From IMG/VR virus record IMGVR_UViG_2693429524_000022: a DNA stretch of 3,648 bases; one strand, 5' to 3'. Below the pieces are notes generated by a model, which saw only the letters and a list, made by a program, of their open reading frames with translations, was not told the origin of the DNA and did no database searches. The stretch comes from a virus (Duplodnaviria > Heunggongvirae > Uroviricota > Caudoviricetes). Both the position numbers and the translations under genes were made by a program. Positions 1 through 3,648 of this stretch are shown one piece after another. The first letter of the stretch is position 1; each line of letters starts with the position of its first letter.

Positions 1-1235
1 CTATGATAACCGCGCATTCAACATAGCTACCTGTTCGTCGTTCATGTCATCAATCCACATACCGTAAATTTCATACACCATCTGCGCAGTTTCATGCCCC
101 ATCTGGCTGGCTATAAATGCCGGGTTCGCTCCTGCCGTCAACAACCAGCAGGCAAAAGTATGCCGCGTATGGTACGGATTACGGCGGCGAATACCAGCAC
201 GTTTTACTGCTGCATTCCATCTCGCCCCCAGACTGCTTACCGAGTAATAAGGTTTCTGTTTTCCGTTACACACCCTGGGCATGAAAACAAAATGCAGTTT
301 TTGCTTTTCGGTTCTGCCGTACTCCCGATGATAAAAAGTGATTTCGCTTTTGCGATGATGCCCGGTTAGTTTGTATTGCTCCTTCAGTGCTTCAATAGCA
401 GGCCGCAGTAGTGTTACCGTCCGAATCCCCGCATTTGTTTTTGGGGGACCGAACATATCAAGTATCGTCAGGTTTCTTCTGACATTCACAATTCCCTTCT
501 CGAAATCCACATCCTCCCACGCCAGAGCAGCCAGTTCCCCGTGACGAAGCCCGGAGTAAACGGCAAATTTCCACAAGTTCTGGCTCTGTCCTTTTTCACT
601 TTCCATTAATGCATTGAATTCTGTTTTAGATAACGGATCAGGCTTTATTCTGTTTCGCTGTAATTTTTTTACTCCTTCAAATGGTTTGGTTGATATAAAT
701 CCCGACTGATACGCAAAACGTAACAACGAACAGAGCAGGGCGATATAGTTATCAACTGTGCGCACGGTTCTTCCTTTTTGTTGGATCTTGGATTATCCAG
801 GTAAAGCGTTTCTCCATGCAGCAGTTCATTCCGGTAGTTTAAGATATCGCTATAACGAATATGTGATATTGGGGTACTCTCACAAATTATTATCCTGAGT
901 GTTTTTAATTGTGATTTCGTTTTCTTCATTGTGTTTGTTGTTAACTCTGTCTCTTTAATTTTTGTCCAGATATCACAAAGCTCCCCGAACGTTTTTATGA
1001 CCCTCGTTGTCACCATTTTTGCCCCAGTGCTGGACTGGGGGAAACGTCTTAAATACTCAAATTCACCGGAATTGATTTCATGAACTATCAACGCTCTTAA
1101 ATTCCCGGCTTTTTTAATGTTACTGTTAGTAACCTCCCAGCCTTTCAATGTTTCCCGACATCGTTTTCCTCGAAACATGAACCAGATGCGAATGTATTTA
1201 CCTCGAATCTCGACACCTGTTGGTAATTTAGACAT
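1..1235 (-). pseudogene. intR: Tyrosine recombinase (phage integrase), frame-disrupted. The N-terminal segment (ATG 1233-1235, in-frame stop 669-671) and the C-terminal catalytic segment (open from 792 down to stop 1-3) are in different frames. The switch lies in 766-782, across an A5/T5 homopolymer at 775-779.
   Basis: N-terminal ORF (188 aa, MSKLPTGVEIRGKYIRIWF...) resembles an integrase arm-binding/core N-terminus. C-terminal ORF (254 aa) carries tyrosine-recombinase catalytic signatures: GLRHGELAALAWEDVD (box I Arg), NPYHTRHTFACWLLTAGANP (box II His/Arg) and a terminal Tyr region (MVYEIYGMW). 1235 nt from start to stop is one nt short of a multiple of 3. Restoring one base in the homopolymer would give a continuous ~411-aa protein, the length I recall for K-12 IntR. 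Symbol is from recollection of Rac organisation, not a search. Confidence 0.8.
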
Positions 1236-1236
1236 A

Positions 1237-1452
1237 TCATGAGTCTTTGATAAACTGATTTATCTTTGGATAGTTGTACCAGATAATCCCTCGCTTACTG
1301 TCTGGCTTCCCTAAAGGAGATACTCGTTTGAAGTGGAAGCCTTCCACCCAACAGTTCTGGCGGTATGCTTCAATTTGTCTGGCCCCCAGACCAGTGCGAA
1401 GCATCAGGCCGTATTCAACCATCCACTCTTCATTAAAGATTACTTGTGCCAT
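1237..1452 (-). CDS. xisR: Excisionase-like small DNA-binding protein (71 aa from ATG at 1450-1452). The ORF track's longer form starts at a TTG at 1474-1476.
   Basis: Small basic protein ([44 protein letters not shown]...) immediately upstream of the integrase on the same strand. Its TGA stop (1237-1239) is one nt from the integrase ATG. The ATG at 1450-1452 is preceded on the coding strand by GAGGTGA with 5-nt spacing. 71 aa matches my recollection of K-12 YdaQ/XisR. Confidence 0.7.
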
Positions 1453-1503
1453 CGCATCACCTCTGGCAGGCGCCAATGTTAGACTGAAATTGACGCCCGA
1501 TGT

Positions 1504-1519
1504 TGATTATTAATAATCA
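1504..1519. repeat. Perfect 16-bp palindrome TGATTATTAATAATCA in the ydaC-xis intergenic region; candidate operator or protein-binding site.
   Basis: Sequence 1504-1519 is its own reverse complement; flanks at 1503/1520 break the symmetry. It sits in a 99-nt AT-rich non-coding gap (1453-1551). Existence is certain; function is inferred. Confidence 0.5.
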
Positions 1520-1551
1520 GCTATGAAGTTTTAATTTGAATACAATGCAAT

Positions 1552-1740
1552 TCACGAGGACTGAAGTTGCTCGCAATTAAAATTTATCAGTTTTACTTTC
1601 TGCTCTCTGGAAACGCCTGCTTCTTTTTTACCTGAGAGCATTTTTTCGCATTCTGATTTGGTTAATTTTGTTTTTGAGTACCTTGTCCAGTTAGTAGGAG
1701 TGCCACCTTCCTTTTCAATAGTGGCGGTAATTTTATACAT
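1552..1740 (-). CDS. ydaC: YdaC-like small prophage protein of unknown function (62 aa from ATG 1738-1740; alternative upstream starts at 1750-1752 and 1810-1812).
   Basis: ORF MYKITATIEKEGGTPTNWTRYSKTKLTKSECEKMLSGKKEAGVSREQKVKLINFNCEQLQSS. The ATG at 1738-1740 has a GGAGGTG Shine-Dalgarno (1744-1750) 5 nt upstream, lying inside the last codons of the upstream gene. Position between the RalR-like gene and the excisionase matches Rac. Symbol from recollection; no recognisable catalytic motif. Confidence 0.55.
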   Translation of the reverse strand: MYKITATIEKEGGTPTNWTRYSKTKLTKSECEKMLSGKKEAGVSREQKVKLINFNCEQLQSS

Positions 1741-1927
1741 GAACACCTCCATTATTATTTCCAGTGGTTCGTTTATTCCATCGTTCGAGTGCTTCTTTTT
1801 CACTTCCACCATAGCCGGTTCGGGATTCGCATCCGTTACACTTCGCGCGGTAATATCCTGAAATGGCTTTCACCGTTACTGATGGACAACCACAAAAAGG
1901 GCATGGTTTGACTTTTTCATACCGCAT
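1733..1927 (-). CDS. ralR: Lar-family restriction-alleviation protein / RalR-like DNase toxin (64 aa from ATG 1925-1927; alternative ATG at 1940-1942 gives 69 aa).
   Basis: Translation MRYEKVKPCPFCGCPSVTVKAISGYYRAKCNGCESRTGYGGSEKEALERWNKRTTGNNNGGVHV has the paired CxxC zinc-binding motifs (CPFCGC ... CNGC) typical of Lar/RalR proteins. Its size and its position directly downstream of the annealase match Rac ralR. 64 aa is the length I recall for K-12 RalR. Confidence 0.75.
   Translation of the reverse strand: MRYEKVKPCPFCGCPSVTVKAISGYYRAKCNGCESRTGYGGSEKEALERWNKRTTGNNNGGVHV
1744..1750 (-). promoter_or_regulatory. Shine-Dalgarno GGAGGTG for ydaC, embedded in the 3' end of the ralR-like coding sequence.
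   Basis: Coding-strand sequence AAT AAT AAT GGA GGT GTT CAT GTA TAA in the ralR frame. The ydaC ATG (1738-1740) lies 5 nt after GGAGG and overlaps the last two ralR codons; ralR stop is at 1733-1735. Confidence 0.55.
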
Positions 1928-1959
1928 TGTCTTTTCTCTCATAAAATAAAATTTTGTGA

Positions 1960-1981
1960 TGGCGGTGAGGCTACACCGCCA
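1960..1981 (-). other. GC-rich stem-loop (8-bp stem TGGCGGTG / CACCGCCA, 6-nt loop) in the annealase-ralR intergenic region.
   Basis: Inverted repeat read directly: 1960-1967 tggcggtg, loop 1968-1973 aggcta, 1974-1981 caccgcca. Lies 17 nt upstream of the first possible ralR ATG on the coding strand. No adjacent U-tract, so not called a terminator. Confidence 0.4.
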
Positions 1982-1990
1982 AAGTCAATA

Positions 1991-3043
1991 TCAGGAGCCG
2001 ATATATTCTGGTTTCATATCTGTCAGTGTCGTTTTATACGCCTCATATAATTCACCCAGATGTGGCCGGGCAGCATTCAGCGTATTTTCCAGAGCAGTAA
2101 ATTTTTGTTCTGCTTCTGGATCACCTGAAGAAGGTAGGTCATTTATCATCTTCTCGATACGGGCAATAGCATTGAGACGGTGATGACGCTGAACCACTTT
2201 TCCTTTAAGTTCCGTATAGAGAGCGCCAAGTGTATTTTTATGATCTTCCACTTCCTGGCGAAGTGCTGTTGTTTCCCCGGTGCTTTGTGCCTGCTCAATA
2301 CGTTCACGGAAAGCATCGATCCAGTTTTCCCCGGCATCCTGCTCAATAATTGTTGTTTCACGTTCCGCGCGGCAAGCGGAAGTGTTTTTATGTTCCTGAA
2401 CCGGATTAATGATTTTTTCCTGTGGCTCGTCCAGTTCGTCCCTGGTGTACACTCCAAGAATCACTTCGGGGCAATAAAGGCGCGCCCAGCGTTTCAGCGC
2501 TAGATAGGCAAGCTGCTGGCGAGGATCGTCGGCCCATAGCGTTGAGTTACGTGTTCTGGCCTGCGCCAGAAGTAATTCCAGTACGCGTGGTTTACTTTCG
2601 CCGCGTAGTGTTGCCTGGACACGAACACCGATCCCGTTTTCATCGGCCAGCTTCCAGCCAGGTACACGATATTCTTTCCCTTTGTCGCTCTTCCTGATTT
2701 CAAATTTCCCGATAATTTTTTCCCACGGCCCGAACCAGTCATATTCAATACGCCCGGTTAGCGGCCCACGAGTACTGATTACGGCATTAACCAGTTGCGC
2801 TTCATATCCGAGCACACCATTCACAACGAAAGTTTTCTGAGCTACTGCGTAAGGGTTCATTTGCCACTGCATCGCCTGCATGGTGATGGCCATGCAGTCT
2901 GATGGATTTCCTCGGAGGTGTTCCGGTACAGTAGCCATGCCGGAAGCCATTACCTGGGAAAATGTCTGAATTGCAGCCATGGACTGAGGGCTGAAAACCG
3001 CAACATTAGAGTTAATATTTTCTTGTTGAGTTAATTCGTTCAT
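1991..3043 (-). CDS. RecT/Redbeta-family single-strand annealing protein (350 aa) with an extended charged C-terminal tail.
   Basis: Complete ORF ATG 3041-3043 to TGA 1991-1993. Internal segments resemble conserved Redbeta/RecT regions as I recall them: FVVNGVLGYEAQLVNAVISTRG (compare Redbeta VPVVGVDGWSRIIN, RecT IIGYRGMIDLARRSG) and TLWADDPRQQLAYLALKRWARLYCPEVILGVYTRDELDE (compare Redbeta GPWQSHPKRMLRHKAMIQCARLAFGFAGIYDKDEAE). It is not the 269-aa K-12 RecT sequence, so no symbol is given. Sits directly downstream of an exonuclease gene with a strong RBS. Confidence 0.8.
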   Translation of the reverse strand: MNELTQQENINSNVAVFSPQSMAAIQTFSQVMASGMATVPEHLRGNPSDCMAITMQAMQWQMNPYAVAQKTFVVNGVLGYEAQLVNAVISTRGPLTGRIEYDWFGPWEKIIGKFEIRKSDKGKEYRVPGWKLADENGIGVRVQATLRGESKPRVLELLLAQARTRNSTLWADDPRQQLAYLALKRWARLYCPEVILGVYTRDELDEPQEKIINPVQEHKNTSACRAERETTIIEQDAGENWIDAFRERIEQAQSTGETTALRQEVEDHKNTLGALYTELKGKVVQRHHRLNAIARIEKMINDLPSSGDPEAEQKFTALENTLNAARPHLGELYEAYKTTLTDMKPEYIGS

Positions 3044-3047
3044 TGTG

Positions 3048-3054
3048 TCCTTCC
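3048..3054 (-). promoter_or_regulatory. Shine-Dalgarno GGAAGGA for the annealase, abutting the exonuclease stop codon (translational coupling).
   Basis: Coding-strand sequence ATC TGA GGAAGGA CACA ATG: exonuclease stop at 3055-3057, SD at 3048-3054, annealase ATG at 3041-3043. Confidence 0.6.
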
Positions 3055-3648
3055 TCAGATGCTCAGTGCTTCAAGACGACGAAGATCAAAGTCGTTTAAT
3101 TCGTCGGTATAACTTTCGGTAATCGGTGCTGGCCAGTTGTTTGTCTCCAGGGCTTCGTTTATCTGGCGTAGCGTCCGGCGATATTCCTGTCGACCAAGTT
3201 CCAGGAGTTCCTGCGAGGCTTCCACGACTGCCACCCAGTGATAGCCAGCATCTTTGTTGACGAAGATCCAGAAAAATTTGTCCAGGTTTGCCACATCGCA
3301 ATACATTGCGGCGCTGAGGTGATAATCACGCTCAATAATTTCACGGTGCAGGCGATCTTTAAGTCGTTCCTGTCGCACATAACCGAGGCTGACTGACTTC
3401 ACGTCAGCGCAAATGCTTTCGTATGGCAGCCGGATTTCGATATCAGGACGGACCCTGATTTCCAGCCCGGTTTCTTCATCAAACCCGAAATAGCTGATTT
3501 CAGATTTGCGATCCGGGTGGTTGAGTTGAACCGCCCCGGGTTTCCTGGAGAGTGTTTTATCTGTGAACTCAGGCTGCCAGATCATCGTTTCCGATGGAAG
3601 CATAATAAGCTTTTTCTGCTTCTGCCGGAGGAGTATGGCCCAGCCTTC
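3055..3648 (-). CDS. PD-(D/E)xK exonuclease of the RecE / lambda-Exo type, C-terminal 197 codons only; the 5' end lies beyond the window edge.
   Basis: Frame is open from the window edge (3648) to TGA at 3055-3057. It contains RVRPDIEIRLPYESICADVKSV (PD ... DxK arrangement) followed by YHLSAAMYCDVANLDKFFWIFVNKDAGYHWVAVVEA, which parallels the lambda Exo C-terminal region as I recall it ([37 protein letters not shown]). Too little sequence lies upstream of the PD motif for a complete nuclease domain, so the ATG at 3601-3603 is probably internal. Confidence 0.7.
   Translation of the reverse strand, partial: EGWAILLRQKQKKLIMLPSETMIWQPEFTDKTLSRKPGAVQLNHPDRKSEISYFGFDEETGLEIRVRPDIEIRLPYESICADVKSVSLGYVRQERLKDRLHREIIERDYHLSAAMYCDVANLDKFFWIFVNKDAGYHWVAVVEASQELLELGRQEYRRTLRQINEALETNNWPAPITESYTDELNDFDLRRLEALSI

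Follow-up and report, generated by a model that had tools for sequence, protein, structure and literature searches.

The stretch of DNA analyzed here (hereafter the window; 3,648 nt, from an IMG/VR record of a Caudoviricetes virus) combines genes of a Rac-type prophage with an annealase gene whose product is unlike the RecT protein of E. coli K-12. This raises the questions of whether the recombination genes were exchanged within the prophage, whether they still form a working exonuclease/annealase pair, and what the long C-terminal tail of the annealase contributes. We consider it quite probable that the window represents the left arm, at the integrase end, of an E. coli prophage of the Rac type, and that its recET cassette is an alternative allele that was exchanged as a unit and is defective in this copy.

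The prophage arm and the interrupted recE gene

The arm formed by intR, xisR, rcbA and ralR/RalA is present in the window and resembles that of the Rac prophage of K-12; between intR and ralR the DNA identity with K-12 Rac is 96.7% (as found when the O145 and K-12 loci were compared by blastn). The int-xis-ydaC-ralR order that the first-pass annotation had likened to Rac is thus indeed that of K-12, with a DUF1187 gene (rcbA/ydaC) in third place. The integrase gene (1..1235, minus strand) encodes a Rac-type tyrosine integrase with the Pfam domains Arm-DNA-bind_2 and Phage_integrase. It is followed by the excisionase gene xisR (DUF1233; 1237..1452, minus strand; PF06806, E 8.9e-21), by the DUF1187 gene (1552..1740, minus strand; PF06688, E 1.3e-37), which occupies the position of K-12 rcbA, and by ralR (1733..1927, minus strand; PF14354, E 4.3e-14), which encodes a Lar-family restriction alleviation protein acting as a type I toxin. 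The RalA antitoxin sRNA lies on the plus strand (1556..1734) and matches Rfam RF02694 over its full length (215.2 bits, gathering score 170).

Positions 1-3526 of the window are near-identical to two other loci, L003 and L001, in which the corresponding genes are annotated xisR and ralR; the only differences are a 1-nt indel and, in L001, one additional mismatch. In both loci ttcA, which itself lies outside the window, is located directly beside intR, and these intact relatives thus appear to be Rac-type prophages at ttcA. Alignment with their intact 1236-nt intR shows that the window copy lacks a single T at about position 774, within a T-run, and this deletion splits intR into two ORFs (669-1235 and 1-765). 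The frameshift, which may be a sequencing error, had been overlooked at first pass.

At the other end of the window, recE is interrupted at 3526/3527 by an insertion sequence. What remains of the gene (3055..3526, minus strand) are the last 156 codons and the stop codon of a 1041-aa long-form RecE (residues 886-1041), as judged from the comparison with L003 and L001, neither of which differs from the window in this region, from a partial match to Pfam DUF3799 (31.4 bits) and from motif mapping. The remnant retains the RPD...DVK motifs. Since only residues 886-1041 are kept, the nuclease domain has lost its N-terminal two thirds, and with them His676 and a 157-aa insertion discussed below. The window therefore does not hold the complete PD-(D/E)xK domain, with its His, PD and DxK residues, that would qualify the product as a RecE/exodeoxyribonuclease VIII. 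The intact ortholog in L001, on the other hand, passes the RecE model NF007259 (1562.7 bits; cutoff 1269) and has H676, RPD at 911-913 and DVK at 926-928.

The interrupting DNA is the right end (122 nt; 3527..3648, minus strand) of an IS1203/IS629 element of the IS3 family, to which both its terminal inverted repeat and the 3' end of transposase orfB assign it. The inverted repeat, TGAACCGCCCCGGG, begins at 3527, and all 123 nt at positions 3526-3648 agree with the IS1203 copy in L003 (100% identity). This end still contains the stop codon and the last 25 codons of the transposase (3569-3646, minus strand), whose translation is identical to that of IS1203 and which have the same orientation as recE and recT. 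Matches to the IS part that are annotated as IS1203 number in the thousands; the exact recE-IS junction occurred neither in any of the loci compared nor among the GTDB representative genomes or 5426 complete E. coli genomes. An ORF of 182 aa (3055-3603) that spans the junction is a chimera, with its start inside the IS. The insertion sequence had not been noticed before, and the exonuclease ORF was taken to run on past the window; instead, recE homology stops at 3526. The intact and clonable exonuclease/annealase pair that the first-pass annotation implied is likewise not present, because IS1203/IS629 truncates recE and removes the conserved His.

Thus, the module is defective in the window: recE is cut to its last 156 codons, intR is frameshifted, and the annealase gene alone is intact. 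If it is transcribed, its product could support, at most, single-strand annealing that is independent of an exonuclease. A scan of positions 1900-3648 for promoters and terminators gave no signal above shuffled expectation.

The annealase family and the boundaries of the exchanged cassette

The annealase gene (1991-3043, minus strand) encodes a protein of 350 aa that is identical to RefSeq WP_001004423.1 and to the protein of the O145 strain, and some 3% of complete E. coli genomes carry the gene. The recE stop codon TGA (3057-3055), read on the minus strand, is followed by an 11-nt spacer, GGAAGGACACA (3044..3054), which contains the Shine-Dalgarno-like GGAAGGA, and then by the annealase ATG at 3043. 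The tight coupling of the two genes described in the first-pass annotation is therefore correct.

The core of the protein (aa 1-195; 2459..3043, minus strand) is of the RecT/Redbeta type, as indicated by Pfam and PHROG, with a weak Foldseek match in addition. Pfam RecT (PF03837) matches aa 30-209 with E 4.6e-43 and 147.5 bits (cutoff 24), covering profile positions 2-190 of 198 and hence the annealing core; the same profile gives 188.9 bits with K-12 RecT and 115.6 bits with lambda Bet. Two of the initial proposals, that the protein is a RecT/Redbeta-type annealase and that it is unlike K-12 RecT, are both borne out: the match to an annealase family is strong, and no similarity to K-12 RecT could be detected by BLASTP (E 0.36) or by hhalign with the family profile (probability 0.3%). 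The classical RecT models TIGR00616 (rect) and NF007351, which give 464.5 and 415.7 bits with K-12 RecT, did not match the annealase, nor did the lambda Bet model TIGR01913 or any other NCBIfam model at E <=0.01. A comparison of the family with lambda Bet by hhalign recovered a 37-column motif only (E 0.0093, probability 4.4%), and a sequence search of the PDB with the family profile returned nothing at E up to 1. At the structural level, the core may have a Rad52-like annealase fold: its best PDB match in Foldseek is the N-terminal domain of Redbeta (7ujl), and this match is weak (E 0.053, probability 0.89, TM 0.21/0.39; core pLDDT 60-90). The match to PHROG 561, a family of RecT-like ssDNA annealing proteins, extends over the full length of the protein, including its C-terminal domain (aa 4-349, E 1.3e-145), and the tail by itself also matches this family (E 1.7e-31).

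In NCBI and phage records, many homologs go by the name 'enterohemolysin' or 'enterohemolysin 1', which would suggest a hemolysin instead of a recombination protein. This can hardly be correct, considering the strong RecT-family and PHROG annealase matches, the Redbeta N-terminal domain as best structural match, and the fact that the gene always adjoins, and is translationally coupled to, a RecE-type nuclease gene. Moreover, no signal peptide or membrane segment was seen in the ORF. An EHAP1-like subgroup of RecT/Redbeta, with enterohemolysin-associated protein 1 as prototype, was reportedly defined by Iyer et al. in 2002, and EHAP1-like proteins, from E. coli and Salmonella, are treated as such a subgroup in a later paper (PMC8093625). 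The annealase thus appears to belong to the PHROG 561 or 'enterohemolysin' (EHAP1-like) branch of RecT/Redbeta, with the EHAP1 part of this assignment based on legacy names and a secondary citation.

How did a gene of this branch come to lie in a Rac backbone? Homology to K-12 ends at position 1982, some 10 nt downstream of the annealase stop codon (9 nt before it in window numbering) and just beyond a conserved hairpin that K-12 also has (GGCGGTG...CACCGCC, 1961-1980; boundary 1961..1982, from blastn of the O145 against the K-12 locus and base-level alignment). In the intact relatives it resumes inside recE, at about codon 590 in K-12 numbering, where the breakpoint immediately follows the codons that encode ...SDETGE. 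Over its N-terminal ~600 aa, their RecE is largely K-12-like, with 73% identity over 704 aligned residues and near-identity from about aa 110. Since homology to K-12 stops past the annealase stop codon and returns within recE, the swapped unit consists of exactly the RecE nuclease domain and the annealase. Replacement of the module by mosaicism, as suggested at first pass, is therefore supported by the intact relatives, with breakpoints that are sharper than had been guessed.

It could be argued that recET simply diverged vertically inside Rac, given that the nuclease domains are distantly homologous (27-29% identity) and that both annealases belong to Pfam RecT. Yet the flanks share 96.7% and 93.1% DNA identity with K-12 while the 2.4-kb interior gives no blastn match, the annealases have no detectable pairwise similarity, and base-level alignment shows that the transitions are abrupt, occurring within a few bases. 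We consequently give ordinary divergence next to no weight. The cassette was most probably exchanged as one unit, by recombination through the conserved flanks, these being the hairpin 3' of recT and the recE segment just upstream of the nuclease domain. The boundaries coincide with those of the smallest unit that functions in recombineering, the RecE nuclease domain together with the annealase, and provide a clean natural example of prophage mosaicism that respects function.

The C-terminal domain of the annealase and the long nuclease

The tail was initially described as an acidic, coiled-coil-like extension of about 140 aa. Rather than a simple coiled coil, it comprises two parts: a linker (aa 196-237; 2333..2458, minus strand), which is acidic (pI 4.5) and disordered (pLDDT below 50) and varies in length and sequence, and a remainder (aa 238-350; 1994..2332, minus strand), which is only mildly acidic (pI 5.4) and which a tail-only AlphaFold model predicts to be a compact helical domain, folded over aa 238-348 (pLDDT 91.3, pTM 0.79) as a spectrin-repeat-like bundle. 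This C-terminal domain (CTD) is conserved across the family and, with a dN/dS of about 0.05-0.25, is under purifying selection. It is found in only 85 representatives among 1.84 billion proteins and is always C-terminal. No Pfam model describes it, the tail alone yielding only sub-threshold helical-protein noise (HrpB7, Spectrin), and no fold match to the Redbeta CTD or lambda Orf was found that would identify it as a Redbeta-type exonuclease/SSB-binding domain. A PADLOC match of the tail to JetC/MukB-like proteins (17 bits, E 2.4e-4) was judged to reflect coiled-coil composition, and a link to defence was discarded. Because the identities of core and CTD are decoupled in loci L040-L055, the linker also serves as an intragenic recombination boundary between the two.

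The distribution of the tail may give an indication of its role. Apart from 157 aa inserted at K-12 residues 673-690 (residues 697-853 of the 1041-aa RecE), the long RecE nuclease domain (aa 604-1041) corresponds to the short domain of the K-12 type. This insertion falls inside the disordered loop at the channel rim of RecE (residues 665-698) described previously (PMC11611040). Tail and long nuclease are found together in nine annealase lineages with two core types (seven 70%-identity clusters and the single loci L169 and L171), and the tail-less annealases of the phiV10 and K-12 types have short nucleases. In sandwich mosaics, the similarity between nucleases follows that of the distal CTD (Spearman 0.70-0.85) no less closely than that of the adjacent core (0.47-0.75), for loci that are phylogenetically non-independent, and where the core has been swapped (pAEv1818, L008), tail and long nuclease have stayed together. 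There are three exceptions: a tail with a short nuclease in one clear lineage (L172), a half-tail with a YqaJ nuclease (L007), and an orphan tailed annealase that has no neighbouring nuclease (L170). Five other candidate exceptions were rejected, either as contig truncations (L041, L058) or as deletion remnants (L057, L067, L081). Thus, the tail usually seems to co-occur with the long RecE nuclease domain, a correlation among related loci that should be seen as a lead and not as a finding. The idea that the tail sets partner specificity, which was raised at first pass, would be consistent with the co-occurrence and the mosaics, and is contradicted by L172, L007 and L170.

By analogy with the family, a RecE-type nuclease would resect the 5' strands at double-strand ends, and the annealase would coat the 3' single strand and anneal it to a complementary strand. 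The CTD would most likely tether the annealase to a partner, as the Redbeta CTD does, this partner being the cognate nuclease, SSB, or both. On the one hand, the CTD and the rim-loop insertion might form a dedicated docking pair, and cassettes with both would be exchanged as self-contained, mutually specific units; we put this forward very tentatively and regard it as rather unlikely. If true, the annealase would be positioned at the mouth of the nuclease ring, from where it would be loaded onto the 3' strand as this emerges. Exonuclease-annealase coupling would then have a second solution, structurally unrelated to that of lambda Red, from which orthogonal recombineering pairs could be drawn.

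On the other hand, the CTD may bind not the exonuclease but a host factor, most plausibly the C-terminal tail of SSB, and so set host compatibility, the association with the long nuclease being due to shared ancestry. The tail accompanies nucleases of three types (long RecE, short DUF3799 and YqaJ) and cores of three types, is found once without a neighbouring nuclease, and belongs to a family that is confined to the narrow set of 85 representatives. In addition, the C-terminus of Redbeta binds SSB-C7, and for extended C-terminal bundles of RecT a role as a surface for SSB or host factors has been proposed (PMC13490951). However, the CTD is dispensed with by K-12 RecT and by the tail-less annealases of the phiV10 type, which work in the same hosts, and the tail stays with the long nuclease both in the core swap and in the sandwich mosaics. 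A host-factor role is therefore possible, although we consider it unlikely. Improbable, in our opinion, is a role of the CTD in oligomerisation or autoregulation of the annealase itself (filament capping, control of DNA binding), devoid of partner specificity: a spectrin-repeat-like bundle is a common scaffold or dimerisation shape and the long flexible linker permits intramolecular contacts, but no data point specifically to such a module, and the co-occurrence with the nuclease insertion would be left unexplained.

As a locus, this is nothing unusual: a RecT-family/RecE pair of a catalogued kind, in a Rac-like prophage that is decaying. Nor is the module new, as the family is already known as PHROG 561, under legacy "enterohemolysin"/EHAP1-like names, and from the recET orthologs of Gifsy-1 and Gifsy-2. 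Whether RecT-type annealases bind their exonuclease through a C-terminal domain was stated to be unknown in a 2023 review (PMC11611040), and the tailed family lends itself readily to a test, having a CTD that folds well, an insertion specific to the nuclease and natural recombinants with swapped domains. From intact copies, such as that of E. coli O145 RM9872 (L001, 7992-12181), it could be possible to obtain a recombineering pair orthogonal to RecET and Red.

Comparison with known systems

RecE/RecT of K-12 Rac shares with the window-type pair the backbone, the flanking genes, the gene order and the N-terminal ~600 aa of RecE, and both pairs combine a PD-(D/E)xK RecE nuclease domain with a Pfam RecT annealase. 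However, K-12 RecT belongs to PHROG 148, not to PHROG 561, matches TIGR00616 and NF007351, and lacks the additional C-terminal domain of ~110 aa. The window-type nuclease domain is only ~27-29% identical to that of K-12 RecE, apart from carrying the rim-loop insertion, and the two genes, 11 nt apart in the window, overlap in K-12.

Lambda Red (Exo/Beta) is likewise a two-component exonuclease/annealase recombinase, and Redbeta, too, has its annealing core at the N-terminus, joined by a linker to a small helical C-terminal domain that binds lambda Exo and SSB. The cores share a weak core-helix motif. The nucleases, in contrast, are of different types (RecE/DUF3799 versus Exo/YqaJ), and the window-type CTD is larger than that of Redbeta, to which it shows no fold match; the annealase does not match TIGR01913.

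The RecE-RecT systems of the phiV10/epsilon15 type (Uetakevirus) have an annealase core that belongs to this branch, with 60.6% identity over aa 16-223, and a DUF3799-type nuclease. This nuclease, however, is the short form, lacking both the insertion and the large N-terminal region of RecE, and the annealase does not have the window-type CTD. In phiV10 itself, nuclease and annealase are annotated as one fused ORF.

The recET genes of Gifsy-1 and Gifsy-2 of Salmonella Typhimurium (STM1009/STM1008 in Gifsy-2) differ from the window in prophage backbone and integration site, the window copy being located in a Rac backbone and disrupted by an IS, and the N-terminal region of their RecE is only ~28% identical to that of the window type. 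They nevertheless have the same layout, a large RecE with the long nuclease directly followed by a tailed annealase, in the same gene order beside xis and int. In Gifsy-2, the nuclease domain is 51.5% identical to that of the window-type cassette over 431 aa, and the annealase 48% identical over 97% of its length. When derepressed, these Gifsy orthologs suppress the recombination defects of recB mutants (PMC3121763).

A variant recET cassette in a Rac-type prophage

All long ORFs of the window lie on the minus strand. Pfam searches identified a tyrosine integrase, whose arm-binding and catalytic parts occupy 669-1235 and 1-765, respectively, followed by a DUF1233 excisionase (1237-1476), a DUF1187 protein (1552-1812), a Lar/RalR restriction-alleviation protein (1733-1942), a RecT-family protein (1991-3043) and a partial DUF3799 PD-(D/E)xK domain (3055-3648). 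On the plus strand, Rfam detected the RalA antitoxin sRNA (1556-1734; 215 bits). When 5426 complete E. coli genomes were searched by megablast, 142 matched the window at a coverage of at least 80%, and every top match ended at position 3526. The intact relative from E. coli O145 strain RM9872 (L001) has the order ttcA / intR xisR DUF1187 ralR / annealase / recE (1041 aa) / racC-like, ydaE, kil, and is Rac at its K-12 site. Its 350-aa annealase (WP_001004423.1, labelled RecT-family recombinase) is identical to the window protein. Compared with L001 and a second locus (L003), which are otherwise near-identical, the intR gene of the window lacks 1 nt from a T-run at about 774 (minus strand). The resulting frameshift splits it into two overlapping ORFs; the cause is either decay of the prophage or a sequencing error in the homopolymer.

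The first-pass annotation had proposed that the annealase is not K-12 RecT, and this was borne out: BLASTP with the 350-aa protein did not find the 269-aa K-12 RecT (E 0.36), and K-12 RecT aligned to a profile of 36 annealase family sequences with an hhalign probability of 0.3%. The alignment with lambda Bet was limited to a 37-column motif (hhalign, E 0.009). The suggested Pfam RecT search did match the annealase (E 4.6e-43, aa 30-209), and K-12 RecT and lambda Bet pass this profile too, but the NCBIfam RecT and Bet models match K-12 RecT and not the 350-aa annealase. In PHROGs, the whole length of the latter falls in phrog_561 (E 1.3e-145), whereas K-12 RecT is phrog_148. The cassette belongs to a catalogued family, its annealase being identical to a RefSeq entry; homologs are commonly named 'enterohemolysin' or 'RecT family recombinase'. 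Within RecT/Redbeta, PMC8093625, citing Iyer et al. 2002, recognises an EHAP1-like subgroup from E. coli and Salmonella. Phage vB_Apl-pPE4 (H33, PP818812.1 796-1845), which its record attributes to Actinobacillus pleuropneumoniae, encodes a RecT with 99.7% identity to the E. coli annealase, which points to an origin in an E. coli prophage or to a misassigned host.

The variant recET cassette proposed for this Rac backbone is real, and both it and its explanation as module replacement by mosaicism were correctly spotted. The O145 and K-12 loci, compared by blastn, are 96.7% identical between ttcA and window position 1982, 9 nt short of the annealase stop codon. Beyond this boundary 2375 nt had no match, and identity (93.1%) returned inside recE from L001 position 10358, at about codon 608 of the variant and 590 of K-12. 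Base-level alignment placed the left junction after a conserved hairpin (1961-1980) and the right junction after the codons for ...HRDCSDETGE. The hairpin (GGCGGTG-loop-CACCGCC), whose stem is kept in K-12 while its loop differs, coincides exactly with the left mosaic boundary, where it may act as a recombination anchor, perhaps as a terminator-like element. Variant RecE is near-identical to K-12 RecE over about aa 110-603, and beyond about aa 603 the nuclease core falls to about 27-29% identity. It has been reported that the K-12 RecE nuclease domain comprises residues 564-866 and can replace the full protein (PMC11611040), so the unit exchanged is the annealase together with the functional nuclease domain. 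Of the 5426 complete E. coli genomes, 163 carry the variant annealase gene at a coverage of at least 80%, and 1625 carry K-12-type recT. No description of the present cassette variant in Rac was found in the literature; Sp10/CP-933R is 99% identical to K-12 Rac across the left 8 kb (Liu et al. 2015). A second mosaic patch was seen at the other end of recE, where the first ~110 aa differ between O145-type and K-12 RecE (L001 11844-12173 versus L002, the K-12 Rac locus, 8083-8379). Across loci, the RecE N-terminal region ranges from 20 to 100% identity and varies independently of the nuclease domain.

An IS1203 end and the recE remnant

The annealase start is tightly coupled to recE, through the stop-GGAAGGACACA-ATG arrangement described earlier. 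What had been overlooked is that window positions 3527-3648 belong to an IS3-family element, IS1203/IS629, and form its right end. The IS inverted repeat TGAACCGCCCCGGG begins at 3527, positions 3526-3648 match the end of the L003 copy of IS1203 at 100% identity, and 3569-3646 (minus strand) holds the last 25 transposase codons plus the stop, again identical to that copy. IS1203-annotated DNA matching the junction piece occurs in 4125 genomes, but the recE-IS junction itself was found in none of the 5426 complete E. coli genomes, nor in the species-representative genomes. Because 3527-3648 is an IS end, the 182-aa ORF at 3055-3603 (minus strand) is a chimera, whose ATG lies within the IS1203 end and which reads on into the recE remnant. 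RecE is reduced to residues 886-1041; the remnant retains RPD and DVK, and has lost the conserved His (H652 in K-12, H676 in the variant) and everything N-terminal to it. The IS has disabled the cassette of the source strain on its nuclease side. The transposase gene points in the same direction as recE and recT, so that transcription reading through from the IS into the annealase gene is conceivable.

The C-terminal domain of the annealase

An AlphaFold model built on 36 homologs divides the annealase into a mixed alpha/beta core (aa 15-195), a disordered linker (aa 196-237, pLDDT <50) and a helical C-terminal domain (CTD; aa 238-348, pLDDT 84-90), which modelled alone reached a pLDDT of 91.3 and a pTM of 0.79. 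The best PDB match of the whole model was the Redbeta N-terminal domain (7ujl), a weak match with a probability of 0.89. The calculated pI is 4.5 for the linker and 5.4 for the CTD. In the family alignment the linker is variable and the CTD conserved, with R246, G273, E278, L279, F315, L329 and E346 invariant. Among close relatives, the core has a dN/dS of about 0.04 and the CTD one of about 0.05-0.25, so the CTD is functional and not junk.

An exhaustive search of 1.84 billion representatives with the tail profile found only 85 proteins (E <=0.001), all with the match at the C-terminus. Full-length tail-bearers have at least three core types: that of the window, a pAEv1818-like type (P0134, P0202), and a K-12-RecT-like type whose tail comprises the distal half alone (P0197). 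In locus L007 (465-2384), such a K-12-RecT-like core with the half-tail (profile positions 70-128) lies beside a YqaJ-type exonuclease, which suggests that the three distal helices may form a sub-module that can be separated from the rest. Three classes of RecT C-termini have been described, one being an extended helical bundle, parts of which may serve contacts with SSB or host factors (PMC13490951). Several prophage remnants have in-frame deletions that either run RecE segments straight into the C-terminal region of the annealase or leave the CTD as an ORF of its own (L057 4834-6261; L081 5986-6339; P0123, P0125, P0127, P0138); prophage decay seems often to involve deletions in the recE-recT interval.

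The tail and the partner nuclease

Alignment shows that the long nuclease domain is a K-12/phiV10-type domain into which 157 aa are inserted (variant residues 697-853; L001 9620-10090); this stretch is absent from the window. The insertion replaces K-12 RecE residues 673-690, and its site falls within the disordered rim loops 665-698 that are thought to capture DNA (PMC11611040). It contains three YNA[ST]LP-like repeats, '...(I/L)xx(Y/H)NA(S/T)LP...', a motif that resembles SAP/HeH-type DNA-binding helices.

We classified 168 loci with local HMMs. A tail accompanied a long nuclease in 78 loci with the window-type core and in two with the pAEv1818-type core; the 81 phiV10-type loci combine the window-type core with a short nuclease and no tail, and K-12 likewise has no tail and a short nuclease. 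When annealases were clustered at 70% identity, these became seven tail-plus-long and two tail-less-plus-short clusters. Five candidate exceptions were ruled out, L041 and L058 being contig truncations and L057, L067 and L081 deletion remnants. Divergent tail-bearers added two tail-plus-long lineages (L169, L171), an orphan (L170), the half-tail beside a YqaJ nuclease (L007), and one clear counterexample, L172, in which a tail (E 2.6e-26) lies beside a 275-aa short nuclease. In phiV10 itself (L005 3116-4876), recE-recT is annotated as a single fused ORF; since nuclease and annealase ORFs are separate in 79 of 81 close relatives (L089-L168 compared), this fusion and its copy in L139 may be a frameshift or a record-specific sequencing artefact.

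Region-by-region identities to the window type revealed sandwich mosaics. In L040-L052 identity is about 95-100% for the nuclease, 57% for the core and 83% for the CTD; in L053 and L055 it is about 94-95% for the nuclease C-part and core, 64-82% for the nuclease N-part/insertion and 72% for the CTD. Insertion identity correlated better with that of the CTD (Spearman 0.70) than with that of the core (0.48), and so did nuclease C-part identity (0.85 and 0.75, respectively); these loci are non-independent, so that the p-values are inflated. The direction of these correlations fits a functional coupling between CTD and nuclease, without proving it, and a link between the two is a reasonable lead to which exceptions are known.

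The same arrangement, a large RecE directly upstream of a tailed annealase, is found in Gifsy-2, in Aeromonas phage pAEv1818 and in L008, a locus with a pAEv1818-type core. The nuclease domains of Gifsy-2 and pAEv1818 are 51.5% and 49.5% identical to that of the variant, respectively, and it has been reported that the recET orthologs of Gifsy-1/2 suppress recombination defects when derepressed (PMC3121763).
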